Below, piece after piece: positions 10,387-64,000 of a DNA stretch of 64,000 bases (positions are counted from its first letter, which is position 1; every line of letters begins with the position of its first letter). A program made the translations under genes and the position numbers. Under the pieces are notes generated by a model that saw only the letters and a program-made list of their open reading frames with translations, was not told the DNA's origin and ran no database searches. The stretch is from Terriglobia bacterium (lineage in GTDB: Bacteria; Acidobacteriota; Terriglobia; 20CM-2-55-15), in the NCBI GenBank assembly GCA_965198225.1, contig CBDAOY010000008.1, positions 64,001-128,000 of the forward strand, written 5' to 3'.

Positions 10387-10435
10387 TGGCCTGTAACAGG
10401 TCACTAAGTACTCAAAACGTCACAGGGAGACTCCG

Positions 10436-45053: not shown

Positions 45054-45090
45054 GCGTCGTACGAACGGTTCTGCTTACGCAACCGCTCAA

Positions 45091-45827: not shown

Positions 45828-45967
45828 ACGTTCTTCAATTGTTTCCCCCCATTCCGACGCGTAACATAACTCCAGACTCCTTAACGATTACTCGGGTGCT
45901 GGGGCGGCGACTGTTTTGCCCTGGCAGGGCCAAAGAGACTCCAATAAAGTGAGTTCTCATTGACAGT

Positions 45968-47797: not shown

Positions 47798-47838
47798 TCG
47801 GAGATCAGTGGTTGAAGTAGTCGGTAGTCAGTAAAGAG

Positions 47839-49179
47839 ATGAAAGACTGTACCAGCTGCAACAAGATGACGCGTCGTGAGTGGATGAAGCAGGCCGCTTC
47901 GTGGGCGGCTTTCACGGCGCTGGCCCGGCGGGGCGATGCCCAGGTTGTCACCGGCAATGCCCAGGTCCGCGGGACGGCTCGCTCCTGCATTCTCGTCTAC
48001 CTGAACGGTGCCCCGTCCCAGCTGGACACGTTCGACGTCAAAGACAACTCCTGGAATCCCGCCGACATCGACATCCAGCAGCACGGCGATATCGCGCTGT
48101 CGAACACCCTGTTCCCCAAGTTCTCCTCGCTCACCGATGATCTGTGCATCCTGCGCTCGGTCCGAAGCTGGGAAGCCATTCATGAGCGCGGTGTCTTCTA
48201 CATGCAGACCGCCCATCCGGCGAACCCAGCGTTCCTGGTCGAAACGCCCCACATGGGAGCGATCATCGCGACGGAGTTGGGCGGTGCCGGCCCGATGCCG
48301 CCGTTTCTCTCGCTGAATCAGCAAGGGACCGTCCAGGGTTCGACGTTTCTCGGCGGGTCCGTGGCGCCCCTGGCCGCCCCCACCGAAGGGGACGGGCTTT
48401 CGGTAATCCGGCACGACTATTTCGGCGAGGACAGCGAGGCCCGCTTTGCCGAGCGCTCCAGCCTGCTGGACCGGCTTGACGCGCGACTTCGCAATGCCCC
48501 GTTTTCGCAAGCGATGGCCGATCACGCGGCGCACTACGAATCGGCGAAGAGGATGATGTTCGACGAGTCGATCGCCTCGGTGTTCCGGCTTTCCGAGGAG
48601 GAGAACGCGCGCTACGGCGACACGTCGCTCGGGAGAGCTGCCCGAGTCGCGCGAAACGCCATTCGCGCGAAGAACGGAACGGTGTTCGCCGCCCTGACAC
48701 ACTCGGGTTGGGACACGCACCAGAGGATGTTCGACCGCAACAACGACCCGAACATGTACACCCTGTGCAACGAACTGGACAGCGCTATCGGCTCGCTTGT
48801 GGAGGACCTCAAGGCGTCTGGCGATTTCGATCAGACCCTTATCGTCATGCTCGGGGAATTCGGTCGCACACCGGGAGCGCTGAACCTTCAGGGCGGTCGC
48901 GACCATCACAGGGACGCGATGAGCGTTGTCATGATGGGCGGAGGCATCGCCGGGGGGCGCGTCATCGGTGCGACCGATCCCAATGGAGCCGCCATGACGG
49001 AGCCGGGCTGGAGCAGAGGGCGTGCCATCGTGATGGAGGATCTCGCTGCAACGATCTATTCAGCGCTCGGTATCGACTGGACCAAGAGCCTCCTGGACAC
49101 GCCCTCGGGCCGGAAGTTCGAATACGTGCCCAGTGGTCTGAGCGGCGTCTACACGTCGGTCGAGGAAGTATTCAGATGA
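47839..49179 (+). CDS. DUF1501-family protein with Tat signal
   Basis: TRREWMK Tat-like motif, GAPSQLDTFD.K, GWDTH, GEFGRTP, GRDH, GGG..GGRVIGATD. Confidence 0.92.
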   Translation: MKDCTSCNKMTRREWMKQAASWAAFTALARRGDAQVVTGNAQVRGTARSCILVYLNGAPSQLDTFDVKDNSWNPADIDIQQHGDIALSNTLFPKFSSLTDDLCILRSVRSWEAIHERGVFYMQTAHPANPAFLVETPHMGAIIATELGGAGPMPPFLSLNQQGTVQGSTFLGGSVAPLAAPTEGDGLSVIRHDYFGEDSEARFAERSSLLDRLDARLRNAPFSQAMADHAAHYESAKRMMFDESIASVFRLSEEENARYGDTSLGRAARVARNAIRAKNGTVFAALTHSGWDTHQRMFDRNNDPNMYTLCNELDSAIGSLVEDLKASGDFDQTLIVMLGEFGRTPGALNLQGGRDHHRDAMSVVMMGGGIAGGRVIGATDPNGAAMTEPGWSRGRAIVMEDLAATIYSALGIDWTKSLLDTPSGRKFEYVPSGLSGVYTSVEEVFR

Positions 49180-51974
49180 GAAGCGTTCGCCATCTGATCC
49201 TGCTCGGCCTGATCCTGGTATCGCACCAGAACGCGCACGCGCAGTTCGAAGCGCGCAGTATCGTCGTCAGTGCGCCGAAGACGACCATAGTTGCCGGCGA
49301 GCGGGTTTCCCTGTTTGCCGTGGCGCGGGACGAGAACGGCGCCACGCGCTCCGATGGTTTCCGGTGGGAGTCGGACGATGAAGGAATCCTTACGGTCGAT
49401 CAGCAGGGCATGGTGACCGCTCGGCGAGTCGGCACAACGAACGTCAACGTCAACATCGATGGTGCGTGGACTTTCCTGTCCTTGGTCGTGGTACCGCTGC
49501 GGGTCGACGTAGGGACGAACGCTTCTGAGGTGTTCGTCGGAGACGCCGTTCAGTTCACTGCAACAGCCCGCGACATCAACGGTGCACCGATACCGGACAC
49601 CGAGTTCTACTGGGCTGTGTCGGGTCCGAACGGCTACTACACGCAAACGGCGTCGATCAGCCAGTCGGGGCTGATGCAGGCTCGGGAGGCCGGACAGGTC
49701 ACAGTCAAAGCGACGCTCGAATTCTTTGGGCAGCCGGGCCAGCCGGAGAGGTTTATCGCTTTCACCGATGTCGTCATCACGCGCAGAGCCGAGTTCCGAC
49801 TCTCACGAGTGCTGGCAACCAATCCCGTCGAAGGTCCGTTTGCGATCCGGCAGATCGACTGGTTCGGTCTGGCCGGTAACGATGCCGGACAATTCGGTTT
49901 CGTTTCGTTGCTCGGGGGGGTGACCAGCGGAATCGTTCTCTACAACAACCCCACGCTGGACCTGCTTGCGTCAGCGGGAACTCCAGGAGCCTTTCCACGA
50001 AGTGTCCTGTGGTCGTTCGGGGGAGTGGCCCTGAACAACGAGGGACAGGTCCTGTCGACTGCCGGCACCCGGGGTGCCCCGGGAAGCCTCGTTTTGTCAT
50101 CGGTGAGAGGCACATCTGTCGTCCTGGTAGAGAACCAGACGCAGGGCAGCTTTCAACAGATTCGGAATTTCCAAATCACCCGGTACTCGTTGAACGACAG
50201 CGGCGACATCGTGTTTCGCGGCCAGTACGACCTGTCGGGCGGCCCGGAGGAAAACGGAATATTCAAACTGTCAGGCGGGAACCTCCGTGCGGTCTGGGGG
50301 ACCACGCTGCCTCTTGCGGACTTTCCGGATGGATTCCAGTTTTTCCAGGAGTTTGGCATCGATGGAAACGGAGTGACTTTTTTCACCGTTCAGGATGGAG
50401 CAGCGCGGGCGATCTTTCGCGCGGACGGACTGTCTGCGCCGCAGAAGCTCGTCTCGACCGGCGATTCCCTAGGCGGATCGACGATTGAGTACCTTGCGAA
50501 CATGGCCATCTCGCCGAACGGAACGATCGCCTTCGATGCGGTCCTGACGAACGGCAGGCAGGGCCCGGCCAGGTATGACAGCGCCGGCAACATCGTCATG
50601 ATGGAGGTCGACAACTTCTACCGGACTCATTCGGTCAACGATCGGGGAGAGGTCGCCTTCACCGGCGATGCGGGAGATAACTTCGGCTTCTATCGCTGGG
50701 ACGGGAACAAGGCGACTGCCCTCCTCGTCTGGGGAGATCCGGTCGGCGGTGGAGGCGCCGGACCGTTCAACGACGCCTATATCACTTCTTCCGGCACGGT
50801 TTACGGCCTCATCGGAACGACTGAAGACAACAATGTAGTTGTCGAAGCCGAGTCCAGGCGCGTCCTCTTCAAGGACGGTGATCTTGTGAACGCCAGCGCT
50901 ACCCTGAGCTTCCTGGGTTTTGTTCCCGGAGCCCAGTCCGGTTTCCCATACGTCTACACCGGAGGACAGATACCGAGTATCTTCGAGGTTGCTCCGGCAG
51001 GTCTGGTACCGGTCTGGATGGAAGGGGAACGGCCGGGGGGAGAGACTTCGGACCGCAGCCTGAACACCGCTGCCCGGAACCCGAGGGGTGACCTCTATCT
51101 GGCTCCTGGAGACGGCGTGTTCCGACATACCGGTTCTCTGGAAACGCTTGTCGATTACTCCGAAAGCATTTCAATCAACCCGTTTCAGTCCATCACCCTG
51201 GACTGGACCAATGGTTGGTACGAGGGGGCGAATGAACTCGCGGCCAACGACGCCGGAACGCTCGTCTGGCGAGCCCAGTCCGACTCCTTCAGCCGGCTGC
51301 TTTCATTCGAGAACGGACGCGTGACGGTGTTGGCCAACTTCGGCGGAGACGATCAGACTCCAGCCCCTGGCGGTGGCGTCTTCGAAGACTTGTTCGGAAC
51401 CGGCCGCACTGCCAGTTCGATCGCGATGGACGACCTCGGTCGCGTGATGGTGAGTGCGCAGGTTCGAGACGGCCCCGACGGCGTCTATCTCCATGAGAAC
51501 GGCCAGTGGCAGACGGCGGCCTTGTTCGACCAGACGGTGATCGGGGGTACCGCTGTCAACCGCGTCAACATGTTCCGTGCTGCCGGGGAAAGATTCTTCG
51601 CGGTGTTCAACCGACCATCAAGCGGGCCGGTTCTGGCGGAGTACGTCAAACAGCAGTGGGTGCCGGTAATCCAGACACGCGATACGATGCCCAACGGTGC
51701 CGACATCTATTGGGTGAACGACACGTTCGACGTAAACCGGCGTGGAGACATCGCTCTCTCCCTCAGCGTAACCGGGGGAAGCGCGTTGTTCCTGCGCACC
51801 TCCGATGGAACGATGCACACCGTCTACCGGACCAGTGAGGAGACTGATCAGGGCGATCGGTTCTGGCAATGGCAGGACTTCGATCTCGACCTCCGCGACG
51901 ACGGAAGCCTCTATTTCATCGGAATCGATCTGCTCGACCGCCACGTCATATACCTGGCCGAACCGCTTTTCTGA
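49176..51974 (+). CDS. Large secreted protein: two Ig-like (Big_2-type) domains followed by repeated beta-propeller-like blades
   Basis: Signal peptide; W.S.D..I.TVD..G.VTA Ig repeats; recurring (L/V)ND.G.(I/V)(A/V)F blades; ATGA overlap with the DUF1501 gene. Confidence 0.78.
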   Translation: MRSVRHLILLGLILVSHQNAHAQFEARSIVVSAPKTTIVAGERVSLFAVARDENGATRSDGFRWESDDEGILTVDQQGMVTARRVGTTNVNVNIDGAWTFLSLVVVPLRVDVGTNASEVFVGDAVQFTATARDINGAPIPDTEFYWAVSGPNGYYTQTASISQSGLMQAREAGQVTVKATLEFFGQPGQPERFIAFTDVVITRRAEFRLSRVLATNPVEGPFAIRQIDWFGLAGNDAGQFGFVSLLGGVTSGIVLYNNPTLDLLASAGTPGAFPRSVLWSFGGVALNNEGQVLSTAGTRGAPGSLVLSSVRGTSVVLVENQTQGSFQQIRNFQITRYSLNDSGDIVFRGQYDLSGGPEENGIFKLSGGNLRAVWGTTLPLADFPDGFQFFQEFGIDGNGVTFFTVQDGAARAIFRADGLSAPQKLVSTGDSLGGSTIEYLANMAISPNGTIAFDAVLTNGRQGPARYDSAGNIVMMEVDNFYRTHSVNDRGEVAFTGDAGDNFGFYRWDGNKATALLVWGDPVGGGGAGPFNDAYITSSGTVYGLIGTTEDNNVVVEAESRRVLFKDGDLVNASATLSFLGFVPGAQSGFPYVYTGGQIPSIFEVAPAGLVPVWMEGERPGGETSDRSLNTAARNPRGDLYLAPGDGVFRHTGSLETLVDYSESISINPFQSITLDWTNGWYEGANELAANDAGTLVWRAQSDSFSRLLSFENGRVTVLANFGGDDQTPAPGGGVFEDLFGTGRTASSIAMDDLGRVMVSAQVRDGPDGVYLHENGQWQTAALFDQTVIGGTAVNRVNMFRAAGERFFAVFNRPSSGPVLAEYVKQQWVPVIQTRDTMPNGADIYWVNDTFDVNRRGDIALSLSVTGGSALFLRTSDGTMHTVYRTSEETDQGDRFWQWQDFDLDLRDDGSLYFIGIDLLDRHVIYLAEPLF

Positions 51975-51977
51975 GCC

Positions 51978-52177
51978 GTGTACGTGCGGTCTAAGACCGC
52001 ACGTTTCCTCTGGCCGCGACGATGTGCGCTCATAGAGCGCCCCTACACCCGGGCGAGAGACAAGTGTACGCGCGGTCTACGACCGCACGTTTCTACTGGC
52101 CGCGACGATGTGAGCTCATAGAGCGCCCCTACACCCTGGCGATAGATGAAGTGTAGGAATGGTCTATGACCGCACAT
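51978..52177. repeat. Degenerate GTAG REP cluster (two doublets plus a single)
   Basis: Variants of GTGCGGTCTATGACCGCAC and GTGCGCTCATAGAGCGCCCCTACAC between convergent genes. Confidence 0.85.
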
Positions 52178-52179
52178 CC

Positions 52180-53109
52180 TCATTCCCCCTCACTCACAAC
52201 CGGCCGCGTCGGCTTCTCATTCACGTGCAACTGGAACACATCCGGCCGCGCATAATGCCCCACCACGTCGAAATCGTATTTCCCCCGCGCAATCTCTCCC
52301 AGATCGATCTCAGCGGTTAGAATCCCGTCCTCGTTGTACAACGGGCCAGCCAGGACTTTCCCGAGCGGGCTGATGATTGCGCTTCCACCACGCATGATGA
52401 CGGTTTCCGGATCGTCACCCTGTATAGCCGGGTAGTCTTCGGGGCAGTCTCCTCGCCTCAGATGCTGGCAGCAGGAAAAGACGTAGCACCGCCCTTCCAG
52501 CGCCACGTGAATCATCGAGGAATGCCAGCTGTCGCGGTCATCGGCGGTTGGCGCGCAGTAGAGTTGAATCCCTTTCCCATACATCGCCGTCCGCATCAGC
52601 GGCATGTAGTTCTCCCAGCAGATGACGGCGCCCAGCTTACCGAGCGGCGTGTCGTAGATCGGTAGCGTTGAACCGTCGCCGAAACCCCAGATGATACGTT
52701 CCATGCCGGTCGGCATGAGCTTGCGGTGTTTGCCCAGGTAGTTGCCGCTGTCGTCGAAAAAGACCGCGGTGCAGTAGAGTGTCCCGTTGTCCCGCTCGAT
52801 GACGCCGACGACCAGGTAGACTCCGGCTTCGCCCGCGATCGTCGCCAGCCGGTCGATCCCCGCCCCCGGAATGTCGACGGCACTCTCCCAATACCGCTTG
52901 AAGTACTCCCGTCCCTCGGGAGACCGGCCTCCGACGCGCGCGCCAAAGTCGAGTCCCTTGGGGTAGGACGAGACGAACGCTTCAGGAAAGACGACCAACT
53001 TCGCTCCCTGGCGTGCGGCATCGGCCGTCAGGTCCCCGATCTTGTCGAGCGTGCGCTCGCAGTCGAAAACGACCGGTGAGGCCTGAACGACGGCGGCAGT
53101 GAAAGACAT
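52180..53109 (-). CDS. Nitrilase (carbon-nitrogen hydrolase family)
   Basis: VFPEAF, KHRKLMPT, ICWENYMPL catalytic E-K-C triad, FDVVGHYARPDVF; ATG 53109 follows GAAGGAG. Confidence 0.95.
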   Translation of the reverse strand: MSFTAAVVQASPVVFDCERTLDKIGDLTADAARQGAKLVVFPEAFVSSYPKGLDFGARVGGRSPEGREYFKRYWESAVDIPGAGIDRLATIAGEAGVYLVVGVIERDNGTLYCTAVFFDDSGNYLGKHRKLMPTGMERIIWGFGDGSTLPIYDTPLGKLGAVICWENYMPLMRTAMYGKGIQLYCAPTADDRDSWHSSMIHVALEGRCYVFSCCQHLRRGDCPEDYPAIQGDDPETVIMRGGSAIISPLGKVLAGPLYNEDGILTAEIDLGEIARGKYDFDVVGHYARPDVFQLHVNEKPTRPVVSEGE

Positions 53110-53161
53110 CGTGGGTTCTCCTTCGTGGTAGCTGACGTTCAGCGCGCCATTGTACATCTCC

Positions 53162-53317
53162 AAGCGCCTTTCGCTGGAAGCTGACGCCCGTGGGAACCTG
53201 GTGCCGGACGCGTGGTTCGCAGCTCTGGCTGTCGAGTCCGGCTGCGAACGGATCACCCTGGATCGTGATTACGCCAGGTTCGAGGGACTGAAATGGAGCC
53301 TTCCACGACTCGCCTGA
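53162..53317 (+). pseudogene. VapC/PIN-domain toxin C-terminal fragment
   Basis: Manual translation KRLSLEADARGNLVPDAWFAALAVESGCERITLDRDYARFEGLKW...stop; N-terminal half and antitoxin absent. Confidence 0.75.
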
Positions 53318-53360
53318 CTCGTTGCGTCCGCACCCACGGAGCTAACATCCGGAACTAAGG

Positions 53361-54182
53361 TCAAGAATTTGCAGCCTTGTAGCGGCCGTGTTGAGGACCA
53401 AAATACTCGCCGAGATCGGTACCCATATGCGACGCGTCGGAGAACATCCACGCATTAACGTCTGCACCAACCCGCATCGCCGCGTGCTCCCGAACCGCGT
53501 GCGTCTTCGTCCAGTCCCGATGGAGCGTTGCGCGCTTCCACTCGGCACGCGACTCCGAGGCGTGCCACATCATCGAGTTGTACAGCAGGCAATCTCCCGG
53601 TTCGAGAACGACGTTCATCGCACCAGGCATCCCCGCGCACATGTTTGGGTCGACAGCAGCGTAGACATCGAAGGGCGCTACCAACCCCTCCACACCGAGC
53701 GCCTCGAACTTGGCAGCGTGAGCGGCCTCGTCTGCGCGGTTGACCCGGATATGACTGCCGGGCACGATCCAGAGGCTGCGATCCGGATACAGCGCGCAGT
53801 TGCTGAAGGCGAACATCTGCGGATCCTGGATCATATCCGCCATGACGAAATAGGGTTCCTCGAAGTCACGATGCCAGCGGCATGCTGTATGGCCATCCGA
53901 ACCCAGGAAGGCAGACATCCCGCCGCAGGCAAGATCGCTGGTCCCCAGTACCTCCGCTGCCGCGTCGTTCAGCTTGGCCACGTTGAGGTAGTCGATCAGG
54001 CAGCGGTGGAAAGTCTTTGGACTCAAAAGCGCCTGTTGGCGTGTGTAGTGGTCTGTCTCGCCCCGGTCCCGCAGCGTGTAGAGATATTCAAAGTGCTCGC
54101 GAAGGCGCCGAATCAAATCGGCGTCGATCGCGTCGCGCACGATGACCCATCCATCCCTCACGAACTGGTCACGACTATGCAT
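53361..54182 (-). CDS. PhyH-family 2OG-Fe(II) dioxygenase
   Basis: F.RDGWVIVRDAI, WHRD, LWIVPGSH, LEPGDCLLYN..WH, R.TLH. Confidence 0.85.
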   Translation of the reverse strand: MHSRDQFVRDGWVIVRDAIDADLIRRLREHFEYLYTLRDRGETDHYTRQQALLSPKTFHRCLIDYLNVAKLNDAAAEVLGTSDLACGGMSAFLGSDGHTACRWHRDFEEPYFVMADMIQDPQMFAFSNCALYPDRSLWIVPGSHIRVNRADEAAHAAKFEALGVEGLVAPFDVYAAVDPNMCAGMPGAMNVVLEPGDCLLYNSMMWHASESRAEWKRATLHRDWTKTHAVREHAAMRVGADVNAWMFSDASHMGTDLGEYFGPQHGRYKAANS

Positions 54183-54210
54183 CCGTGCAACACTACAGTA
54201 CCCTCAGCGC

Positions 54211-54867
54211 ATGTCGCAACAGCCTGAAATCGACCGTTCGGTTGAGCCCACACTGATCGAATTCGGGGCCCAAGGTGGTGTCGTGGTGTTCGACGGGTTC
54301 TTTGCCAACCCCCACGAATTACGCGCCCTTGCGCTCGAGCAGCGATTCGAGCCGGTCGCTGAAACGCTGTTCCCCGGGGAGCGCGTCGAGGTGCCCTTCG
54401 ACCATCGTCATATCATCGAGCATCTCAGCGCGTTCGTGGATTGGGACATTTCCACATTTACTTCCGAATGTCATTTCAACATCTTCACGCTCAAGGACGC
54501 GGACCGGTCGCCTTCTCAACGTGTGCCGCACGTCGACACGATCAAACGGCGGGTTCTCGTGGCGCTGACCTACCTCAACCTGCCCGATCAGTGCCGGGGA
54601 GGCACAAGCTTTTTCAGACATCTTCCCACCGGCCTGGAACGCGTCGCGCCAACCTGCCCCGAGACACTGATCGCCGACCTATACCATCCGCCTGAACCGG
54701 CGGAGTGGGAGCGCGTCTGCACCATCGAAATGCGTTTCAATCGCGTCGTGGTTTACCGCGGCAATCTCTTTCATTCCGCGACGGTCTCAGACGAGGATTT
54801 CGGAGCTGCACCTGAGGCACGCAGGCTAACCATGAACCTGGTTATGGAGTCTGAAATAACCCTGTGA
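54211..54867 (+). CDS. 2OG-Fe(II) oxygenase (DUF6445-like)
   Basis: VFDGFFANP, PHVD, LTYLN, GGTSFFRH, FNRVVVYRGNLFHS, RLTMN. Confidence 0.82.
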   Translation: MSQQPEIDRSVEPTLIEFGAQGGVVVFDGFFANPHELRALALEQRFEPVAETLFPGERVEVPFDHRHIIEHLSAFVDWDISTFTSECHFNIFTLKDADRSPSQRVPHVDTIKRRVLVALTYLNLPDQCRGGTSFFRHLPTGLERVAPTCPETLIADLYHPPEPAEWERVCTIEMRFNRVVVYRGNLFHSATVSDEDFGAAPEARRLTMNLVMESEITL

Positions 54868-54980
54868 TCCGAACCATGTTGTCGACCGGAGGCCAGAGTT
54901 GACGGTGCCGTGTCATCTGTGTGATAACTGAGCCCGTCAGAATTTCCGCAGCCTATCAGTTCACAATCGGGGAGAGAATC

Positions 54981-55316
54981 ATGTCAGAAAAAGCGCTTGG
55001 CGAGTTCATCAATAAGATCAACGGTTCGGCGGATCTCTCGAAGCAGGTTGAAGGTCTCATCTCCGGCCAGCGCGATTGGGCCGGATTTATAGCCCTCGGC
55101 AGGGACAATGGCTTTGAGTTCACCCATGACGAGCTACAGGCCAACCTGGACGCGATCCGTAGCTTGGGCGGCGGGGCAGATGGTGAGCTGAGCCAGGCAG
55201 ACCTCGAAATGGCTGCTGGTGGCGCGGGGATAAGCGGGCCCGGAAAGATCTCGGGTATCGGTGGTGTTGACATCCCGACGACCGAATCCGCGATAAAGTG
55301 GGCGCGCTGCTGGTAA
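54981..55316 (+). CDS. Nif11-like leader RiPP precursor peptide (111 aa; predicted 30 aa core)
   Basis: MSEKALGEFINKI...L...FIALGRDNGFEFTHDEL Nif11 leader; ELSQADLEMAAGG double-glycine motif; GGGGAG RBS. Confidence 0.9.
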   Translation: MSEKALGEFINKINGSADLSKQVEGLISGQRDWAGFIALGRDNGFEFTHDELQANLDAIRSLGGGADGELSQADLEMAAGGAGISGPGKISGIGGVDIPTTESAIKWARCW

Positions 55317-55335
55317 CGCGCGCCGCGCGTCACAC

Positions 55336-56919
55336 GTGAAGATTCTGCTCGTCTACCCCCCGATGCTCAATGTGCACGGGGCGATAGCGCCACCTCTCGG
55401 TATCCTCAACATTGCCGCGGTTCTCGAGAAGAACGGTTACACCGTCCAGGTCGCGGATTTCGTTTTCGAGCTGGCGAACGGCACGACTGAGGCGGGGCCC
55501 AACGTCTACGACGACGTTGCCCGAAGGATCATCGCCTTTGAAGCCGATGTCATTGGCTTCTCGACTCTCTGTGCCTCCTACCCGGGCGCCATCCAGCTTT
55601 CAGACCGTGTGAAGGCGGCCCGACCGAACACCAAGATAGTGTTCGGCGGCATGAACGCTGCGTTTGTCGCCGTAGAGACCCTCGAAGCGTTCGAATCTAT
55701 CGACGTGGTGTGCCGCGGCGAGGGTGAACTCGCCTTTCTGGACATTGTGCAGGCTCTCGAAGGCGACAAGCCGATCTCCCGGGTGCCGGGAATCGCATAC
55801 CGCGACGGATCTCGCGTGGAGGTCACCCCCGACCGGCCGCAGATCCGCAATCTCGACGATCTCCCACTGCCCGCGTATCATCTTGCGCCTTCGTTCGCGG
55901 ACTACGCAGAGTGCAATGTGGGTTTCGGACGCACCGAGGCCCTGGTCGAAGCTGGGCGAGGTTGTTCGTTCAATTGCATGTTCTGCTCGATCTGCGGTTT
56001 CTACGAGGAAAAGGCCCGCCACTACTCTCCCGAGCGCGTCGTCGAGGAAATCGAACTGGTGACCGGCCTCGGCGCGGACTCGATCTACTTTACCTACGAT
56101 ATCCTCACCGAAGACGCGCCCTATGTTCGCCGAATCTGCGAGCTGCTGAAGGAACGCGATATACGCGTGCCGTGGGTGTCGCGGTCACGTCTCGATCTCG
56201 TCGACTATGATCTCATCGACACGATGGTGGAGGCCGGTTGCCGTGAGATGTTCTTTGGCATGGAGTCCGGATCTAAGAAGATCCTCGCCTCATTGCACGG
56301 CAAGAACATCGGGGAAGAGCACAAGATCGACTATGCACGCGAAAACGGCGTGCAGGTTTCGCTCAGTTTCACCATCGGCTATCTCCAGGAGAACCAGGAC
56401 GAAGTCAACGCAACTTTGATGTGCTGCGTCGAATACGCGGCGCGTGGTGTGTTCTGCACGCCCCTGCTTATCTCCGTTCTGCCGGGCACCAAGCTGTATC
56501 ACGCCTATAAGGACCGCCTGGTACAGACGATCACGCCCAAGTTCTCATTCGGCATCGAGTACGATGACGGCCGCAAGTTGGCGAGCGACCAAGCCATGAT
56601 TGCCCGCTACCCACACATATTTTCGTCCTTCTACAATATCCAGCCGAGCCACCTTGACCTGACTCTGCTCGGCCACATCAACTACTACGGGGGCGACGTG
56701 ATGCTGCGTCACAACGCGTTGATGAGAGACATCGTGGCAAAGACCGGGCGGACACCCTACGAGCTCTTTGGTGACTTCTTTCGGTGGGCGGAGCATCAGG
56801 GCATGGCATTGGATCGTCTACAGTTCACGCCGTTACGAGTCGCCGACACCTTCGTTCAGTTCGCAGATCAGGGCGCCGTCGACAACCTTGAAGGCGTAAG
56901 CAGCAGGAGAGCACCGTGA
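55336..56919 (+). CDS. Cobalamin-dependent (class B) radical SAM enzyme
   Basis: N-terminal B12-binding domain (KILLVYPP, PPLGIL.IAA, IVFGG, GEGE), GRGCSFNCMFC, FGMESGS, LPGTKLY. Confidence 0.92.
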   Translation: MKILLVYPPMLNVHGAIAPPLGILNIAAVLEKNGYTVQVADFVFELANGTTEAGPNVYDDVARRIIAFEADVIGFSTLCASYPGAIQLSDRVKAARPNTKIVFGGMNAAFVAVETLEAFESIDVVCRGEGELAFLDIVQALEGDKPISRVPGIAYRDGSRVEVTPDRPQIRNLDDLPLPAYHLAPSFADYAECNVGFGRTEALVEAGRGCSFNCMFCSICGFYEEKARHYSPERVVEEIELVTGLGADSIYFTYDILTEDAPYVRRICELLKERDIRVPWVSRSRLDLVDYDLIDTMVEAGCREMFFGMESGSKKILASLHGKNIGEEHKIDYARENGVQVSLSFTIGYLQENQDEVNATLMCCVEYAARGVFCTPLLISVLPGTKLYHAYKDRLVQTITPKFSFGIEYDDGRKLASDQAMIARYPHIFSSFYNIQPSHLDLTLLGHINYYGGDVMLRHNALMRDIVAKTGRTPYELFGDFFRWAEHQGMALDRLQFTPLRVADTFVQFADQGAVDNLEGVSSRRAP

Positions 56920-58313
56920 CTGAGTTGACTAAGTATTTCAAGGGCAAGAATATGCGGCGCATCGAGAGAATCGTGGAGCATCGCTTCGACGATGCGACCG
57001 TATTGCTCAATCCTTACAACCTGGAGACGATCGAAGTGCCCGAGGAGGCGGTTGCGACCCTCAACTCGCTTGCCGCCGCCCGGACCGAGGAAGAGTTTCG
57101 AGCAGCCAACAATGGAAATGCAGTGGACGAAGAACTGTTCCAGAAGGGCTTCATTGTTCCTGATTCCTATGAGGAACGGGCGATTACCAAGGCTATGGGC
57201 GACGCTCTCGCTCGGCCCACAGAAGTATCGACTTTGTTTGTAGTGCCCACAATGGGCTGCAATCTGAACTGCAGCTATTGCTTCGTCTACCAGAACGGGC
57301 GCGATTTCGAAAAACAAACCCTGGCCTGGCCCGTCTATGAGCGCGGCGTCGAAGCGTATCTTCGCTCCTTCGACAAGACCCAACCCGGCCTCAACAAGAT
57401 CGTCTTCTACGGCGGCGAGCCCCTGATGCGCCCGGCCTTCGTGAAGGACGTCATTGAAGACATCCAGGGCAAGATCGAGGAGGGACGGTTCGGCAAGCGC
57501 GATGTGATTTTTGGCATGACGACGAACGGCACCCAGATCAACGACGAAGTCGCCACGTGGATGGCTGAGAACCAGGTGCACACTTTCGTGTCACTCGACG
57601 GTGACTTCACCGCCAACAGCCGCCGGTTGACCCTCGCCAACGCCAGCGCCAGTTTCGACGCCGCCGTCAACGGCATCAGACTTCTGGAAGCACACGGATT
57701 GAATCCGAGCATCTCCGTGGTCATCGGCAAACACAACATCGACCGCTTCGAAAGCGGCCTCGATTGGCTCGCCGACAATTTCAGAACGCGGACGATCAGC
57801 ATTTGCTTCGTCAACAACAAGCCCGACGGCTCGGAGCGCGACGAGGGCCTACCGCTCGATGCGAGTCAAATTGAAGCGATCTACCGTACCGCCTATGCGA
57901 AAGGGTTCGCCGAGAAGAGCGTGGAATCCTACAGGCAGACCATCGAGCATCGGAGCTTGTCCGCGCCACATTGCGGCGCCGTCGGCGGACACATGATTTT
58001 GCGACCGGACGGCAAGACCTCGCTCTGCCCTTTGCTGATCGACGGGGACGAAACCGCCGTCGAGGTCGAAGAAGAGACGATCGTATCCGAACAGGCGATC
58101 TGGCTGGAGTGGACCCAGCGCCGCCCGCTTAACCCCAGGATGAAGAAGTGCAACGAGAGTTGCGAATACCTGACGGTTTGCACGGGCGGATGTTCCTACG
58201 AGTCACCCGCACGCTACGGGAGCATCTGGGAGGTCAACCCAGAGGAATGTGACAAGCAGCAGGGCGCGATCAACGTCGCCCTCGAACACATCGTCGTCGA
58301 CCGACGGACCTAG
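56916..58313 (+). CDS. Radical SAM/SPASM peptide maturase
   Basis: ~90 aa RRE-like N-terminus, CNLNCSYC, FYGGEPL, TTNGT, VSLDG, SPASM cysteines CGA...CP...CNESCEYLTVCTGGC...C; GTGA overlap. Confidence 0.9.
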   Translation: MTELTKYFKGKNMRRIERIVEHRFDDATVLLNPYNLETIEVPEEAVATLNSLAAARTEEEFRAANNGNAVDEELFQKGFIVPDSYEERAITKAMGDALARPTEVSTLFVVPTMGCNLNCSYCFVYQNGRDFEKQTLAWPVYERGVEAYLRSFDKTQPGLNKIVFYGGEPLMRPAFVKDVIEDIQGKIEEGRFGKRDVIFGMTTNGTQINDEVATWMAENQVHTFVSLDGDFTANSRRLTLANASASFDAAVNGIRLLEAHGLNPSISVVIGKHNIDRFESGLDWLADNFRTRTISICFVNNKPDGSERDEGLPLDASQIEAIYRTAYAKGFAEKSVESYRQTIEHRSLSAPHCGAVGGHMILRPDGKTSLCPLLIDGDETAVEVEEETIVSEQAIWLEWTQRRPLNPRMKKCNESCEYLTVCTGGCSYESPARYGSIWEVNPEECDKQQGAINVALEHIVVDRRT

Positions 58314-58351
58314 CAGCCACGGGCTGCTAAACGCTGAAACCGACCCGTTCG

Positions 58352-60250
58352 ATGAGCCAACCCACATTGCAGCTGGTGTCGATGCCGTGGGCCTCTCCGG
58401 CTTCGTCTTCCATCCAGATCGGGTGTCTCAAGGCTTACGCGGACCAGGTGTTCGCCGGCCGGTTGGATATTACCGCTCACTCCGGATTCTTCAGCATCCT
58501 CGATGTGCTCTTTGAATCCCCGTTTGAAGGCTATGACGCGCTTTCGGGATACCAGGAATATCCCTACTTTCTGCTCTATGCTCGACGCTACCTGGACGCC
58601 GAAGTCGACATTGACGATCTCATCGACCGGCTCAACACGTCTCAACACACGTCCGGGGTCCTCACACCGGAGCTACTGGACCGCCTCGAAACGGCGACGA
58701 TTGCTGATCTCGACTCTTCGATCGTACCGCGTCTCACCGGTCGCGATGTCATTGGTTTCACCCTGAACTTTTTCCAGGTATACGCGTCGCTCTTTGCAGC
58801 CCGACATCTGCAGGACGTGTGCGGCGCAGATGGGCCGCTCTTTCTTCTCGGTGGTTCGAGCGTGAACTTCCCGGAAGTCGCTCAAGTGGTCCGGCGCACC
58901 GGCATCCCCGGCCTCGGCGTCATTGGAGAGGGCGAGAGAAAGCTCGAGTTGATTGTCGGTTCATGGCTGGAGGACTCCGCTACCGTCCAGATTGCCAGCG
59001 ACATTCCCGGTGTCTACGAGCTCGGCGACAAAGCGGCAGGCCTGTTCGAGCGCAACGTCGCCAACTACAAGACGCAGTTCGCAGCGATGGACGAATTACC
59101 GATCCCTGATTTCGACGAATACTTCGATCGGGTACGGAAAGCCTGTTCTGCGGAAGTGGTCGAGAAGACCATCGCTTTTCCAATGGAAGGTAGCCGGGGT
59201 TGCTTTGCACATTGCGACTTCTGTGGTGACAATGTCATCTGGAACGGCTTCCGCAGTCGAGCGTCGAAGCGCGTCTTTGAACAGGCGATGACGCTCACCG
59301 AACGGTACGGTCACCATTCTTCACATTTCGTCGACAACGTTTGCGACAGCTGGGCCGAGTCATTTGCCGACGACTTGATTCGACGTGGTCAGACCCATGC
59401 GACACGCATGGAGATGCGCGTTCATCATCCGGAACGATTCTGGACCAAGCTGGCCCTCGCCGGTGTCTGGGCCGTACAAACAGGCATCGAAGCGCTATCC
59501 GAGCCGCTCCTCCAGGGTATGAACAAGGGGACGACGGTGATGCAGAACTTGATGGCTCACAAGTACCTGTGCGAACTGGGCGTGCAATCGCGCGCGAACC
59601 TGATCATCAATCACCCCAAATCGACACTCGCAGACATCGACGAAACGCGGCGTGTCATCGAACACATCCGGCACATGGGGCGCCTTCGCCTTTCCGACTT
59701 CTCGTTGACCATCGGAAGCCCACTCTACGATGCGCTGAAGCCGGAGGAGCGCCGCAACCTGAAGCAATGGACGTGGGCCACTCTCCCCGAGCACCTCGCA
59801 CCCCACTTTGTGTCTCTTTACGTTCGAATGCCAGACGGCCATGAGCTCGATCCGGAGGTCCGCCGCGGCTGGTATGGATTCGGTCAATGGTATGAAGATC
59901 TGGTTGCGACCTCCGATGTAGATCCCTTCGAGCTCTCCGCGACGCAGATCACGAATACGGCGACGCACATCCGGGGATCGAATATCGACCAGCGAATCGA
60001 AGGGAACGAGCACCACGTCTACGCCCTGGCACACCGGCCACGCACAGTCGAGGCCCTTGCCGCCAAGGCGTGTCTGCCGCCGGGCGGTGTCGCAGTGATC
60101 GTTGCTCAGTTCGTCACCGATCGACTGATGATCCGGGTCGGTGACGAGTACTTGTCTCTGGCATTGCGGCCTCGCTCGGAACTGGTCGCTCGCTATGAGG
60201 GGAAGCAGGCACAGCCGGCGACAGGATCGGTTTCGCGAGTTCTTTCGTGA
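58352..60250 (+). CDS. RiPP-maturation B12 radical SAM C-methyltransferase-like protein (TIGR03975-like)
   Basis: LVSMPWA...SIQIGCLKA start, GEGE, PDFDEYF, SRGCFAHCDFC, VDN, Q.GIEALS..L..M.KG.T..QN, C-terminal winged-helix-like region ending YLSLAL. Confidence 0.85.
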   Translation: MSQPTLQLVSMPWASPASSSIQIGCLKAYADQVFAGRLDITAHSGFFSILDVLFESPFEGYDALSGYQEYPYFLLYARRYLDAEVDIDDLIDRLNTSQHTSGVLTPELLDRLETATIADLDSSIVPRLTGRDVIGFTLNFFQVYASLFAARHLQDVCGADGPLFLLGGSSVNFPEVAQVVRRTGIPGLGVIGEGERKLELIVGSWLEDSATVQIASDIPGVYELGDKAAGLFERNVANYKTQFAAMDELPIPDFDEYFDRVRKACSAEVVEKTIAFPMEGSRGCFAHCDFCGDNVIWNGFRSRASKRVFEQAMTLTERYGHHSSHFVDNVCDSWAESFADDLIRRGQTHATRMEMRVHHPERFWTKLALAGVWAVQTGIEALSEPLLQGMNKGTTVMQNLMAHKYLCELGVQSRANLIINHPKSTLADIDETRRVIEHIRHMGRLRLSDFSLTIGSPLYDALKPEERRNLKQWTWATLPEHLAPHFVSLYVRMPDGHELDPEVRRGWYGFGQWYEDLVATSDVDPFELSATQITNTATHIRGSNIDQRIEGNEHHVYALAHRPRTVEALAAKACLPPGGVAVIVAQFVTDRLMIRVGDEYLSLALRPRSELVARYEGKQAQPATGSVSRVLS

Positions 60251-61095
60251 CGGTGGGGATCGTTCGCCGGAAGCTGCCGGTCATCCTCAATAAGCACCCG
60301 CTCGCCTTCGTCGACGTGAACGACGTCCGGAAGCACTTCGTTTACAGTCTTGAAGTCAATGCGGTCGATCACTGCAACTTGCGTTGCAGACAGTGCACTC
60401 ACATGTCACCGGCTTACCGGGAGGCGTTTCGCACCCCCGAGGAACTGTACCGTGTCCTGAGTCGGACGGCCGAAGCCGTGTACGCCAACACGCTCTCGGT
60501 TCTGGGTGGAGAACCGCTGCTGCACCCCAACCTGACGGAAGTACTCGACGCGTGCCGCGCGTCGGGGATCAGCCGCCACATTTACGTAACGACCAACGGC
60601 GTCCTGGCCAGGGAGCAGCCGAAATCGTTGTGGAAGCACATGGACTTTGTGGTCATCAGCGTCCATGGCGGCGGTCTGTCGCTAAAAGAGGCGCAAGGGC
60701 TCGCGGATGAATTATCCCCTTACGTGATCGCACGCGTCGTCAAAGACGCGTTTCGGCAGATTTTTCTGCCGCACGCGTTAAGCGACAACGACACGGACTA
60801 CGTGTGGCGCACATGCGCGCAGGCCCATGAAATGCGCTGCCACTTTGTCCACGCCGGCAAGTACTACCGGTGCCCGCCACAACGCTTTATTCACGAACGA
60901 TTGGCAGATGCGACCGGAGTGGAGATCCAGGATGATGGTCTCGACCTGTCAGGTCCGAACCTCTTTGACCGCCTCACCCGATACCTCCAGCGCACCGACG
61001 CTCTTGAAGCGTGTCGCTACTGCCTGGGCAGCAGCGGCGGGCGTATCCTTCGGCACGACACGAGAAAAGGCCAGCCGTGGAGGCTGTTCGAGTGA
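60247..61095 (+). CDS. Small radical SAM protein with C-terminal Cys cluster
   Basis: HCNLRCRQCTH.SP, LGGEPLLHP, TTNG, C......C.....GKYYRCP...ACRYC; GTGA overlap. Confidence 0.85.
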   Translation: MTVGIVRRKLPVILNKHPLAFVDVNDVRKHFVYSLEVNAVDHCNLRCRQCTHMSPAYREAFRTPEELYRVLSRTAEAVYANTLSVLGGEPLLHPNLTEVLDACRASGISRHIYVTTNGVLAREQPKSLWKHMDFVVISVHGGGLSLKEAQGLADELSPYVIARVVKDAFRQIFLPHALSDNDTDYVWRTCAQAHEMRCHFVHAGKYYRCPPQRFIHERLADATGVEIQDDGLDLSGPNLFDRLTRYLQRTDALEACRYCLGSSGGRILRHDTRKGQPWRLFE

Positions 61096-62309
61096 TCCGG
61101 ACGGTCGGCGTTCTAACCCATGAGCGCCCTGATGTTCTCGAGCGGTGCCTCGACTCCCTGCAGGACAACCTGAAACGCCACGGGCGCGATGCGGTAGAGA
61201 TTCTTGTCGTAGACGACTCCAAGCCACCCAACGCACGTCTGAATCGGAGCCTGGTTGAGAGCCGGGAATGTGCTCGATACTTCGGAGCAGATGACAAGCA
61301 ACGGATGATCGAGCATATCGGAGCAGAGACCGGCGGAGCCCGCGAGCTGTTGGAGTTCGCGTTCCTTCCAGCCGGAGATGATCTCTTCTGTGCGGGCGCC
61401 AATCGCAACGTACTGCTGGCCCTCGGTTCCGGCCAGCGCTTCATTACCGCCGACGACGACAGCCTGGCCGAGTCGCGGCGCAGGGGTGATCCGGAGCCAA
61501 CCCGCTATCTGGACGCGCCGGAGCGCCGACCCTATGCGGAGGGACGGGATCTGTTCGAATCCGTTGAAGCGCTTGATGCAGCGTATCCCGAGGTTGATGT
61601 CGATCTCGTCGGCGCCCACGAAGAGTGGTTGGGCTCGAACGGTGTCCGCGTCACCCAATCACGAATCGCGGGTGCCCCCGACATGCCGGGTGACGCCCTC
61701 TTACAGATGTATGTCCAGTCCAGGAACCCCGCGTTGCTCGAGGGCATCGTTCCCTTCGTGGAAATAGACAAGGCTCGGGGCGCCGAGATCGTTACAGGAG
61801 GCGACGTTTGCTACCATGTGTGCGGCCTCGACCACACAGAGATCCTCTGGCCCAACCTGCCTTGCTACGAGGATGAGGATCTGATTTTCGCGCGCATACA
61901 CAGAGAACTGGCGGCACCGTTCATCACGATGAAGCTCCCCGTCAATCACTGGCACGACAAGGGAAACTTCGGCGACCCGGTCGCAGACGCCGTCCGTTAT
62001 TTTCCTGCTCGTTTTTGTCGCGATGTTGCCGATGCCATCGCGGCCCCATCGATCGAGGAGATTTGCTCGCGGGTGCAGGCACTCAAAGGGCCACGGGACC
62101 GTTTTGACGAGGCGCGTGAGCTTTTCGGTGGTTTCGTGGCAGCGGCACCAAACTTCTCCGTACAACTCGCTCCGTTTCTGCAACGCGACTCATACGAGGT
62201 CTACGCAAACCAGACTTTCACGGAGGTCCTCGCAGTCTACAATCGCTGGGCCGACGTGCTGCTTGTCTGGGATTCCTGGATGCAAGCGATGAGGAGTTTT
62301 CGTCGGTGA
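61092..62309 (+). CDS. GT-A fold (GT2-like) glycosyltransferase-like protein
   Basis: VGVLTHERPDVLERCLDSL, ILVVDDS, GANRN, FITADDD (DxD-like), EDEDL; GTGA overlap. Confidence 0.7.
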   Translation: MIRTVGVLTHERPDVLERCLDSLQDNLKRHGRDAVEILVVDDSKPPNARLNRSLVESRECARYFGADDKQRMIEHIGAETGGARELLEFAFLPAGDDLFCAGANRNVLLALGSGQRFITADDDSLAESRRRGDPEPTRYLDAPERRPYAEGRDLFESVEALDAAYPEVDVDLVGAHEEWLGSNGVRVTQSRIAGAPDMPGDALLQMYVQSRNPALLEGIVPFVEIDKARGAEIVTGGDVCYHVCGLDHTEILWPNLPCYEDEDLIFARIHRELAAPFITMKLPVNHWHDKGNFGDPVADAVRYFPARFCRDVADAIAAPSIEEICSRVQALKGPRDRFDEARELFGGFVAAAPNFSVQLAPFLQRDSYEVYANQTFTEVLAVYNRWADVLLVWDSWMQAMRSFRR

Positions 62310-62369
62310 GACGCAGGTCTGGCGGAAAGGAATCCGAGCGCATTCCGCCACCGAACTCGAAAGCGAAGA

Positions 62370-62399
62370 TTGACTTCAGGAGTTTAGGGTCATGATAAT
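62370..62399 (+). promoter_or_regulatory. Probable sigma70 promoter for tRNA-Gly
   Basis: TTGACT-N18-GATAAT 19 nt upstream of the tRNA. Confidence 0.5.
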
Positions 62400-62418
62400 G
62401 TTGACGGATCCGAACTAA

Positions 62419-62490
<72 letters not shown>

Positions 62491-62548
62491 CTTTAGTTTC
62501 AACCACTTGGAAGGTAGGCTGAAAAGTTATACCGCATTTATACCGCGT

Positions 62549-63692
62549 TTAGTTCACAAACGCCGATTCGAGCATCTCCGCCGCTTCAAGCCGACGTTCC
62601 AGCGAAGACTGGTTGTAGACCTCCATGTGTACCCCCAATCCGTGGCCTTGTTGATCGCTGATGACCTTAGGATCGGCTCCCAGGTTATTCATCAAGGTTG
62701 CGTGGGTTCTGCGCATTACGTGAAAATCCACCCACCCTAGACCTACCTCCCTGAGTGCTGGACGAATGTAGCGACGCATCGCGTTGTTTTTTGCTAGGGG
62801 CGTTCCTACAGCTTCGGAAGCGAATAGCCACCCATTTGGACCAGTGTCGGGAGAGCCTGCCAACCAGGAATCCATATCACGAACGACCATAGTTGAAAGT
62901 GCTACCAGACGCTTCGACCTCCGTGTTTTAGGTGTTCCGAGTTTGCCGCGATAAAGGCGCTCTTGCACGTCCACTGCATTCTCAGCGACCCGCCCGCGAC
63001 GCAATGCAAAGATCTCGCCGGGACGCATCCCGCCCAGAATCGCTAGTTTGACGATCAGACGTTCCCTAAGCGGTTGGATGGCGGCGGCGATCTTTACGTC
63101 CGCCAGGGTCATGCACCGACGCTCCGGCTTCGAGCATTCCGCTGGCGTAAATAACGACCTTGCGGCGTTCCGATCCGTGACTCGTTCCTCCTGAGCCAAC
63201 CCGAGAATCTGTCGAAGGTCCCAGCGAAGATGATCTGTTGTGCTGAATGACAGGCCGGATCTCGAATCGAGAAAGTCCTGAAGTTCGTCCCTCGTGAGTG
63301 TCCGTATCTGGCGATCACCGAGGCCGGCCACTATCTCTCGATCCACCCTGTCCCTGTTCGTCATGTAAGTCGATGCTTTCCATTTGCGCCGGTAGAAGGG
63401 AAGGTACACCTCTTCGATGAACTCCCTGACGGTACAATCTGGCGACACATCCACACGGGTATTGATCGGTTTCAAAATCGATGAACTCCCTGACGGTACA
63501 ATCTGGCCGGGTATTGATCGGTTTCAAAATGTCCGCTAGCTTGTCCCGTGCTTCCGACTTCGTGATCTTGTTCCCGCCCTTGCACGCACCGAGCAGTTTC
63601 GTCTTGTGGTTGCCTTCTTCTCTGTACTTACCGACCCAGTAGCGTCCGTCGCCGGACTTCGTTACCGAGCCTTTTTGATACCGTTTCCGCAT
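62549..63692 (-). pseudogene. Tyrosine recombinase/phage integrase, frameshifted by a 52 bp internal duplication
   Basis: N-terminus MRKRYQKGSV...WVGKYRE in one frame; GMRPGEIFAL, TPKT, FHVMRRTHAT, QQGH...Y in another; duplicated segment 63479-63530; converges on the tRNA 3' end. Confidence 0.85.
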
Positions 63693-63866
63693 GTGCACCA
63701 CCTCGAGGCCACGGTCCATGGTGATAGCGGCGTCGCAACTTACTACACAACCGGGACAACAAGGTACCCGGATGGGACAATCCTGCAGGGCATCTTTCGG
63801 GCTTCAATAGTGGCGATAAGGCAGGGAAACCAGTGGAAGTGGGCACACCTCCATGCCCAGCTCTAA
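63690..63866 (+). pseudogene. NTF2/SnoaL-like protein C-terminal fragment
   Basis: VHHLEATVHGDSGVATYYTTG...RASIVAIRQGNQWKWAHLH abuts the integrase start with no N-terminus. Confidence 0.5.
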
Positions 63867-64000
63867 ACACAACAAGTTTCGCGGAAATCATTCGCCGACT
63901 CACGAGACCCCTCCACGCTTCGTCTCCGGCGTAGAGTCTTGTGGCGCCGGGCTTCGGCAGTTTTTCGCCGGGCTGTCCTACTGCGACTAGGGGTCCGATT

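Follow-up and report, generated by a model that had tools for sequence, protein, structure and literature searches.

A probable radical SAM-based ribosomal peptide cluster with a Nif11-leader precursor and a GT-A-fold protein in a Terriglobia genome

Eight genes at the locus

We examined a cluster of eight genes in a Terriglobia bacterium (Acidobacteriota; GenBank assembly GCA_965198225.1, contig CBDAOY010000008.1), which an earlier note, made from the DNA and its open reading frames (ORFs), had proposed to be a new biosynthetic system for a ribosomally synthesised and post-translationally modified peptide (RiPP). The host genome is 6.4 Mb in nine contigs, and the window, by which we mean the whole 64,000-nucleotide stretch analysed, is G000:C8:64001-128000, positions 64001-128000 of that contig. 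All eight genes were located at 53361-62309 of the window with their reading frames intact, as follows.

53361-54182, minus strand: PhyH-family protein, Fe(II)/2-oxoglutarate (2OG)-oxygenase-like, 273 aa (Pfam PF05721), divergent from the operon
54211-54867, plus strand: DUF6445 protein, 218 aa, probable Fe(II)/2OG oxygenase (Pfam PF20043), 113 bp upstream of the precursor
54981-55316, plus strand: Nif11-leader precursor, 111 aa (TIGR03798, Pfam Nif11)
55336-56919, plus strand: class-B (B12-binding) radical S-adenosylmethionine enzyme (rSAM), 527 aa (Pfam B12-binding and Radical_SAM; nearest named family ApyD)
56916-58313, plus strand: rSAM/SPASM peptide maturase, 465 aa (Radical_SAM; seven C-terminal Cys)
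58352-60250, plus strand: divergent TIGR03975-like rSAM, 632 aa (full-length alignment to TIGR03975, below cut-off)
60247-61095, plus strand: SpeY-like twitch rSAM, 282 aa (match to PDB 7wzv_A)
61092-62309, plus strand: GT-A-fold glycosyltransferase-like protein, 405 aa (AlphaFold2 model and Foldseek)

The precursor lies directly upstream of five co-oriented genes, the last four of which are joined by three overlaps or a 38-base gap; the overlaps are the GTGA start/stop junctions already reported in the earlier note, at 56916, 60247 and 61092. The enzyme inventory of that note (four rSAMs, two oxygenase-like proteins and a GT-A protein) is confirmed by Pfam and NCBIfam assignments, and the CX3CX2C motif is present in all four rSAMs. 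Its gene starts needed correction, with the DUF6445 gene most likely beginning at 54211 (the protein collection records it in its 218-aa form) and the GT-like gene at 61092, and its placement of both oxygenase genes upstream holds, except that the PhyH gene is divergent rather than co-oriented. As the note had also stated, the families of LanM/LanB, YcaO and lasso cyclases are absent from Pfam and NCBIfam scans of the eight cluster proteins, and the gene content supports its proposal of a RiPP cluster built on radical chemistry. We consider it probable (roughly 65%) that the genes form a functional RiPP biosynthetic operon serving one pathway. Hairpins after the precursor stop codon and after the last gene are no better than those in shuffled sequences (z +1.05 and -0.33), and counts of promoter-like sites (2 against 2.7 expected) and terminator-like sites (14 against 8.3 +/- 3.3) were not used. 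A look-up of RNA runs returned none for this stretch.

The precursor peptide and its natural variants

The 111-residue precursor matches the TIGR03798 leader family at 37.8 bits (cut-off 32.3), its residues 1-81 aligning to positions 1-68 of the 68-position model, and Pfam Nif11 (PF07862) at 27.3 bits (cut-off 23.8). The leader comprises residues 1-81 (54981-55223) and terminates in the Gly-Gly pair G80-G81, where the TIGR03798 model also ends, in agreement with the double-Gly site and the 30-residue core predicted before. That core, residues 82-111 (55224-55313), has the sequence AGISGPGKISGIGGVDIPTTESAIKWARCW, and the only Cys of the precursor is residue 110.

Three natural variants of the precursor are available, from the window and from two other assemblies. 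In a collection of 5.8 billion proteins, two proteins passed among 7 candidates, and just one relative falls outside the precursor's own protein cluster (P0122, 91%). The variant from an assembly sequence of 47,359 nt is identical over residues 1-64 and the C-terminal blocks, with 10 differences in 111 residues, all within residues 65-102; among these is the loss of the Glu at core position 21, which in the third variant is replaced by Asp. Because it is lost or changed to Asp in the variants, this Glu is unlikely to be a site of modification. Common to all three peptides are the leader, a block ending in DIPTT and the terminal SAIKWARCW, and the differences lie only around the leader/core junction; within the core, conservation covers only the C-terminal 20-21 residues. 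The 632-aa rSAM encoded beside the 47,359-nt variant differs at just 5 of 632 residues. No orthologous cluster was found in 59 related genomes or in one pattern-based scan of the species-genome collection.

The four radical SAM proteins

The 527-aa protein has Pfam B12-binding (74.8 bits) and Radical_SAM (59.3 bits) domains, with the motif CSFNCMFC at residue 210. Its best named family is ApyD (NF050148), at 227 bits against a cut-off of 750 and with positions 22-436 of the 645-position model aligned; the next family scores 134.6 bits. The best sequence match in the PDB is TokK (7kdx, E 4.3e-17).

For the 465-aa SPASM protein (Radical_SAM, 65.8 bits) 67 NCBIfam families were matched, none above its own cut-off. 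PapB (NF047865), at 117 bits against a cut-off of 340, is the highest among the best 25 of the 67 matches, and cyclophane-forming and darobactin-type families score 71-80 bits; since these are only 37-46 bits lower, the type of bond cannot be told from the scores. Matches in the PDB are 5wgg (E 3.4e-15) and 8vpo (E 1e-12). The seven C-terminal Cys are residues 353, 371, 412, 416, 422, 426 and 445, and about 100 residues precede the rSAM motif. A RiPP recognition element (RRE) was sought in this N-terminal segment and in the C-terminus of the 632-aa rSAM, and Pfam at E<=10 gave either nothing or sub-threshold winged-helix-type matches (DUF742, 17.3 bits).

The 632-aa protein aligns over almost its entire length with TIGR03975 (residues 8-605 to positions 3-606 of 606), at 183.8 bits against a cut-off of 281.85, and its motif CFAHCDFC at residue 284 is invariant in the family. 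The earlier note called it a TIGR03975-like B12-rSAM; no Pfam B12 domain is detected in it. In the 5.8-billion-protein collection 167 relatives were found at E<=1e-3: a 99% twin, followed by a family, mostly full-length, at 34-43% identity over 72-100% of the query (features from the best 120 of 167). No orthologue is present in 59 other genomes of the genus, family and class, where the best match has 32% identity over residues 132-418, and a pattern-based scan of the species-genome collection returned 10 loci with at best 30-32% identity to this protein and no orthologous cluster. At two metagenome loci, L037 and L039, relatives with about 40% identity adjoin short peptides whose leader ends in KVKGG:

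L037 1904-2053, plus strand: KVKGG-leader short peptide, between tandem rSAM copies
L039 2752-2913, plus strand: KVKGG-leader short peptide, between tandem rSAM copies

One of these peptides scores 23.9 bits with TIGR04149, just under the cut-off of 25. Judged by sequence, this adjacency ties the family of the 632-aa rSAM to peptide substrates. The two peptides have a similar Cys-containing core and the rSAMs are in tandem, in two and three copies, and together they seem to form a distinct rSAM-peptide family, apparently one not yet characterised. Except for that at metagenome locus L033 (see below), relatives with about 40% identity are found without the remaining cluster genes. A complex prediction, run without controls, for the 632-aa rSAM with the precursor scored 0.01 against a mark of 0.32. 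Several related genomes also contain runs of three or four adjacent B12/rSAM-type genes (among them G048:C6:64170-70803 and G013:C66:6630-14203), which match the 632-aa rSAM only weakly, with 22-30% identity. In the literature searched, the papers listed for TIGR03975 are metagenome surveys, as judged by titles and the opening lines of abstracts.

The small rSAM of the earlier note can be specified further. This 282-aa protein (Radical_SAM, 48.0 bits) matches PDB 7wzv_A at E 2.3e-39, with residues 33-279 aligned to 34-283 at about 40% identity, and the entry is titled 'Twitch Radical SAM Dehydrogenase SpeY'. Besides CX3CX2C, its Cys 190, 209, 256 and 259 align with Cys of SpeY, and by sequence it is a clear SpeY homologue, of the sugar-type twitch class. 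This assignment comes from the sequence search because the AlphaFold2 model, built from a two-row alignment, is poor (predicted local distance difference test, pLDDT, 40.7) and was used only for the title of 7wzv. SpeY-like relatives occur in 4 of 401 genomes of the phylum of genome G060, and at the three contexts examined, which are myxobacterial loci, no other cluster gene is present. Literature searches on SpeY and 7WZV returned nothing relevant.

The GT-A-fold protein and its family

The last gene had been described as GT2-like, and Pfam Glycos_transf_2 falls short of its cut-off (21.1 bits against 23.3, at residues 32-74 of the 432-aa frame), but the fold is borne out by modelling. The AlphaFold2 model (pLDDT 86.9) has as its top Foldseek matches in the PDB MtdL, PcManGT, TarP, GlfT2 and SpsA, with probability 1.00 and best template-modelling (TM) scores of 0.47/0.51 at 13% identity. 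On this model the 405-aa protein has a genuine GT-A fold, and its sequence carries a DDD motif. Close relatives are few, with five matches in a word search. The motif, D121-D122-D123, is shared without change by all six sequences of a first alignment; in a set of 80, D122 never varies and the conservation of D121 and D123 is 90% or higher. D41 and N104-R105-N106 are likewise conserved in the family.

A profile search gathered 3,636 representatives, defined at 50% identity, with E<=1e-3, of which 1,711 have E<=1e-30, and among 10 members scanned no Pfam or NCBIfam family passed its cut-off for the GT-A domain. Among 150 members listed, most are about 590 aa long, with roughly 100 extra residues at the N-terminus. 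In the one member tested, P0131, this extension superposes on PqqD-family chaperones and RRE-bearing enzymes (TM 0.64-0.75 by query), and its nearest clusters by features are MftB chaperones (0.81), so that the extension looks PqqD/RRE-like, as a lead from a single member. In genome G154, of the planctomycete phylum (G154:C2:5178-8969; L108), a GT-A-like domain is fused behind a phosphopantetheine-carrier domain, beside a nonribosomal peptide synthetase (NRPS) module.

The oxygenase-like proteins

The PhyH-family protein passes the Pfam PF05721 cut-off (35.4 bits against 22) and has the H104-x-D106 motif; it has no NCBIfam match and no sequence relative in the PDB at E<=0.1. The DUF6445 protein matches PF20043 at 120.2 bits, with HVD at residues 130-132 of the 241-aa frame and a later His, and its nearest named Atlas clusters carry 2OG-FeII_Oxy_3 (score 0.90), which we take as a lead only. 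A sequence search of the PDB with DUF6445 gave nothing meaningful, and DUF6445 was not found in the literature searched. Both proteins are counted with the cluster for their adjacency only.

Conservation and distribution of the cluster

Members of the 90% protein clusters of all eight genes come from the 47,359-nt assembly sequence and of seven of the eight from a second one of 63,548 nt, each set being placed on one contig from equal sequence lengths. Full-length enzymes are 95.7-99.2% (47,359-nt) and 90.1-97.0% (63,548-nt) identical to those of the window, and two of the 47,359-nt entries are shorter, PhyH at 221 rather than 273 aa and the B12-rSAM at 478 rather than 527 aa. Contigs from public sequencing runs (three studies, four runs) include two that span the 9.1 kb, X2 and X4, and one that covers about half; over this length X2 has no differences and X4 has two to three (two places, three letters). 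The source sample may be among these runs, and they are uninformative on variation.

A family-profile scan of metagenomes yielded 69 loci, in which a tblastn search with nine window proteins found further cluster genes only in L033, and phmmer found no precursor match at E<=10 among their 3,421 ORFs. L033, from metagenome record PVBE012672957.1, encodes relatives of the B12-rSAM (59% identity, in divergent orientation), the TIGR03975-like rSAM (43%), the SpeY-like rSAM (52%) and the GT-A protein (36-41%), together with a paralogue whose TIGR03975 score, 288.9 bits, is above the cut-off and in which a B12 domain is found (PF02310, 36.6 bits).

The cluster was not found in three genomes of the same genus, each of which retains the nitrilase gene that borders it in the window, at 83-84% identity. 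In the 14 kb beside the nitrilase gene in two of them, nothing else of window positions 44000-64000 aligns and no cluster gene is present.

Leader removal and export

No protease or transporter gene lies within the cluster. The only C39 domain found in the genome (132.7 bits, at G000:C5:290345) belongs to a protein encoded at 290202-291596 of the same contig (L118 4202-5596). A TIGR03797 exporter subunit of the nitrile-hydratase-like leader peptide (NHLP) type (920 bits) adjoins a second Nif11 precursor of the genome. That precursor (G000:C5:659353-659613; L001, and L004 about 10353-10613, minus strand; TIGR03798, 43.3 bits) also adjoins a DUF7005 protein (451 bits), with DDE transposases nearby, and the region may be a second, different RiPP locus.

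Comparison with known systems

The closest parallels are with proteusins. In the polytheonamide (poy) and pythonamide (ere) pathways, a long-leader peptide is C-methylated by B12-rSAMs and is also the substrate of an rSAM epimerase and of Fe/2OG hydroxylation, with a nitrile-hydratase-like leader as the class-defining feature and PoyD-type rSAM epimerases as typical enzymes (PMC9505594). The cluster described here, as known by its domains, has in common with these a long leader, a B12-rSAM, a further rSAM and Fe(II)/2OG-type genes. It differs in that its leader is Nif11 and not NHLP, with TIGR03798 the only leader model matched at E<=0.01; in that its second rSAM is a seven-Cys SPASM protein nearest to the PapB/CteB cross-linkers rather than a recognised epimerase (no PoyD-type epimerase appears among the NCBIfam matches listed for the four rSAMs, which for two of them are the best 25 of 67 and of 49); and in that it is without an N-methyltransferase or a LanM-like dehydratase and adds the SpeY-like rSAM and the GT-A protein. 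The predicted enzyme logic parallels that of proteusin pathways, and the pairing of a SpeY-like rSAM with a GT-A protein is unusual. We take the cluster for a recognisable, if uncommon, type of peptide natural-product pathway.

In aminopyruvatide biosynthesis, ApyD is a B12-rSAM that forms beta-methyltyrosine next to the C-terminus of the RiPP (PMC10635010). Among named families it gives the first rSAM of the cluster its highest score, which is far below the 750-bit cut-off, and the partners encoded in the apy cluster (a multinuclear non-heme iron-dependent oxidative enzyme, a P450 and a methyltransferase) are absent here. With the PapB/CteB thioether synthases of ranthipeptides and sactipeptides, the best NCBIfam and PDB matches, the SPASM protein has in common the rSAM core, the seven-Cys SPASM region and an N-terminal extension, but their substrate cores are Cys-rich whereas the core here has a single Cys, and the score is 117 against 340. 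The 632-aa rSAM resembles the system of TIGR03975 (rSAM C-methyltransferases of RiPP maturation) and TIGR04149 (Gly-Gly peptides targeted by rSAMs) in its full-length alignment and in relatives that adjoin Gly-Gly-leader peptides, and departs from it in scoring below the cut-off, in having no Pfam B12 domain and in that its own substrate would be a Nif11 leader peptide and not a short one.

SpeY itself, a twitch rSAM that dehydrogenates a sugar, reportedly belongs to spectinomycin (aminoglycoside) biosynthesis, whereas the gene here is part of a peptide operon and shares an overlap with a GT-A gene. A GT-A-fold enzyme in a RiPP operon is known from the SunS-type GT2 of glycocins, and such an enzyme could glycosylate Cys, Ser or Thr; the window protein belongs to an unnamed family that has no Pfam or NCBIfam model. 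The earlier note did not recognise the combination as a described class, and no described cluster with such a combination of enzymes was found in the literature searched, which consisted of main texts, largely from outside the subscription journals; a new class is, however, not thereby established, as classes are defined by product chemistry.

A proposed pathway and its alternatives

We propose a sequence of steps, given here in order of decreasing confidence. The Nif11 leader would recruit the maturases. The SPASM enzyme would then make one cross-link within the invariant C-terminal KWARCW, as a thioether if the single Cys is used or as a carbon-carbon bond if a Trp is. The B12-rSAM, and perhaps the TIGR03975-like enzyme, may C-methylate unactivated carbons; since the beta-methyltyrosine made by ApyD lies beside a C-terminus, one may reasonably guess at a beta-methylated Trp. 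The GT-A protein might glycosylate an invariant Thr, Ser or Cys of the peptide, after which its translationally coupled SpeY-like partner might oxidise or epimerise a sugar carbon by radical chemistry. DUF6445 and PhyH may hydroxylate side chains. Finally, the leader would be cut at Gly-Gly and the product exported in trans, which is suggested because the cluster is without a protease or transporter and both a C39 peptidase/permease and an NHLP-type exporter subunit are encoded elsewhere in the genome. The complete version of this scheme, a ribosomal glycopeptide to which the GT-A protein adds a sugar that the SpeY-like rSAM remodels, with C-methylation and the KWARCW cross-link in addition, is tentative, and we judge it rather unlikely.

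Several observations weigh against a single peptide pathway or against its sugar steps. None of the enzymes reaches the curated cut-off of the named NCBIfam family nearest to it, so that no reaction can be transferred with confidence, and each of the reactions above is a prediction from gene content, motifs, homologies and conservation. SpeY is said to act on an aminoglycoside intermediate, not a glycopeptide. For the 632-aa rSAM the only Pfam match is Radical_SAM (38.0 bits), with PF02310 not matched. The window GT-A protein lacks the N-terminal extension seen in most of its family, and relatives of it were found in 2 of 400 other genomes of the phylum, in unrelated contexts, one standing alone and one as an NRPS fusion. 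The C39 protein, of 464 aa, has the peptidase and permease parts of bacteriocin ABC exporters and no ATPase domain, and no ATPase ORF follows its gene on the same strand. At L033, no precursor or Nif11 match, SPASM, DUF6445 or PhyH is present in the 15,112 of 30,404 bases examined, and the shared module abuts GT2, GT4 and PIG-L genes that are oriented towards it.

The last observation also speaks for two adjoining units, in which the precursor, B12-rSAM and SPASM genes form a RiPP unit and the TIGR03975-like, SpeY-like and GT-A genes form a module whose substrate is not a peptide but, for example, a surface glycan or a small molecule that bears a sugar. It is joined by the fact that SpeY, the closest relative of the small rSAM with a solved structure, belongs to aminoglycoside biosynthesis, by the occurrence of the GT-A family outside rSAM contexts, and by the three myxobacterial SpeY-like loci without other cluster genes. 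However, the same L033 module includes an ApyD-like B12-rSAM and the paralogue above the TIGR03975 RiPP cut-off, relatives of the 632-aa rSAM adjoin Gly-Gly-leader peptides, the one GT-A-family extension tested is PqqD/RRE-like, and the genes in the window run in one direction directly behind the precursor, overlapping by GTGA or 38 bp apart, and we consider this division of the cluster unlikely. The peptide might, alternatively, be the substrate of all the enzymes with no sugar involved, the SpeY-like rSAM epimerising or dehydrogenating a residue and the GT-A protein transferring a non-sugar group or serving as a scaffold. SpeY has reportedly been proposed to descend from an epimerase, and the likeness of the GT-A protein to glycosyltransferases is moderate in structure (TM 0.47/0.51, 13% identity) and below the Pfam GT2 cut-off in sequence. 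Epimerases of the rSAM type, such as PoyD, are moreover typical of proteusins (PMC9505594). What makes this alternative very doubtful is that DDD, D41 and NRN are kept across the family as in nucleotide-sugar GT-A enzymes, that the best listed Foldseek matches are glycosyltransferases or mannosyl-phosphoglycerate synthase, bar one unnamed mycobacterial protein, and that the small rSAM is about 40% identical to SpeY over nearly its full length, with four aligned Cys.

A silent or decaying relic that makes no product seems to us highly improbable. It would fit with a cluster that has no dedicated protease or exporter and was not found in the three same-genus genomes, and with the shorter PhyH (221 against 273 aa) and B12-rSAM (478 against 527 aa) entries of the 47,359-nt assembly; but all eight frames are intact with their catalytic motifs present, and two other assemblies retain the operon with proteins that are 90-99% identical, the leader and the C-terminal blocks of the precursor being conserved.

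Neighbouring genes

The cluster lies between the nitrilase gene at 52180-53256 (minus strand) and, at its downstream end, a tRNA-Gly(CCC) gene, beyond which lies a recombinase gene; genes for DUF1549/DUF1553 and DUF1501 proteins, which are typical of planctomycetes, adjoin the region just upstream.

62419-62491, plus strand: tRNA-Gly(CCC) (ARAGORN), downstream boundary, outside the pathway
62549-63475, minus strand: tyrosine-recombinase gene, following the tRNA-Gly

The tyrosine-recombinase gene is split into two overlapping minus-strand ORFs, 62549-63475 and 63315-63719, with two pairs of exact direct repeats at their junction, one of 30 nt (63414 and 63478) and the other of 23 nt (63456 and 63508). 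The arrangement suggests an integrase gene that a short internal duplication has interrupted at the border of a tRNA-linked island. The nitrilase has a likeness to the Nit6803 family (218.7 bits, cut-off 502.6), and its Pfam 'Thionin' match (26.5 bits) is probably spurious.

Significance

RiPP pathways with several rSAMs are a main source of new peptide chemistry, and this one is practical to express, as it is compact (about 9 kb), lies in a nine-contig genome and comes with three natural precursor variants. In the literature searched, no description was found of a Nif11 precursor followed by both a sugar-type twitch rSAM and a GT-A protein, and the cluster also draws attention to a very large unnamed family in which a GT-A domain is combined with an RRE-like extension (one member tested). 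If the sugar steps are correct, the cluster would represent radical sugar tailoring on ribosomal peptides and would give a first function to a GT-A family of about 3,600 sequence clusters. If they are wrong, it would still be a useful new proteusin-like member of the rSAM-modified peptides, from a phylum with few characterised RiPPs.

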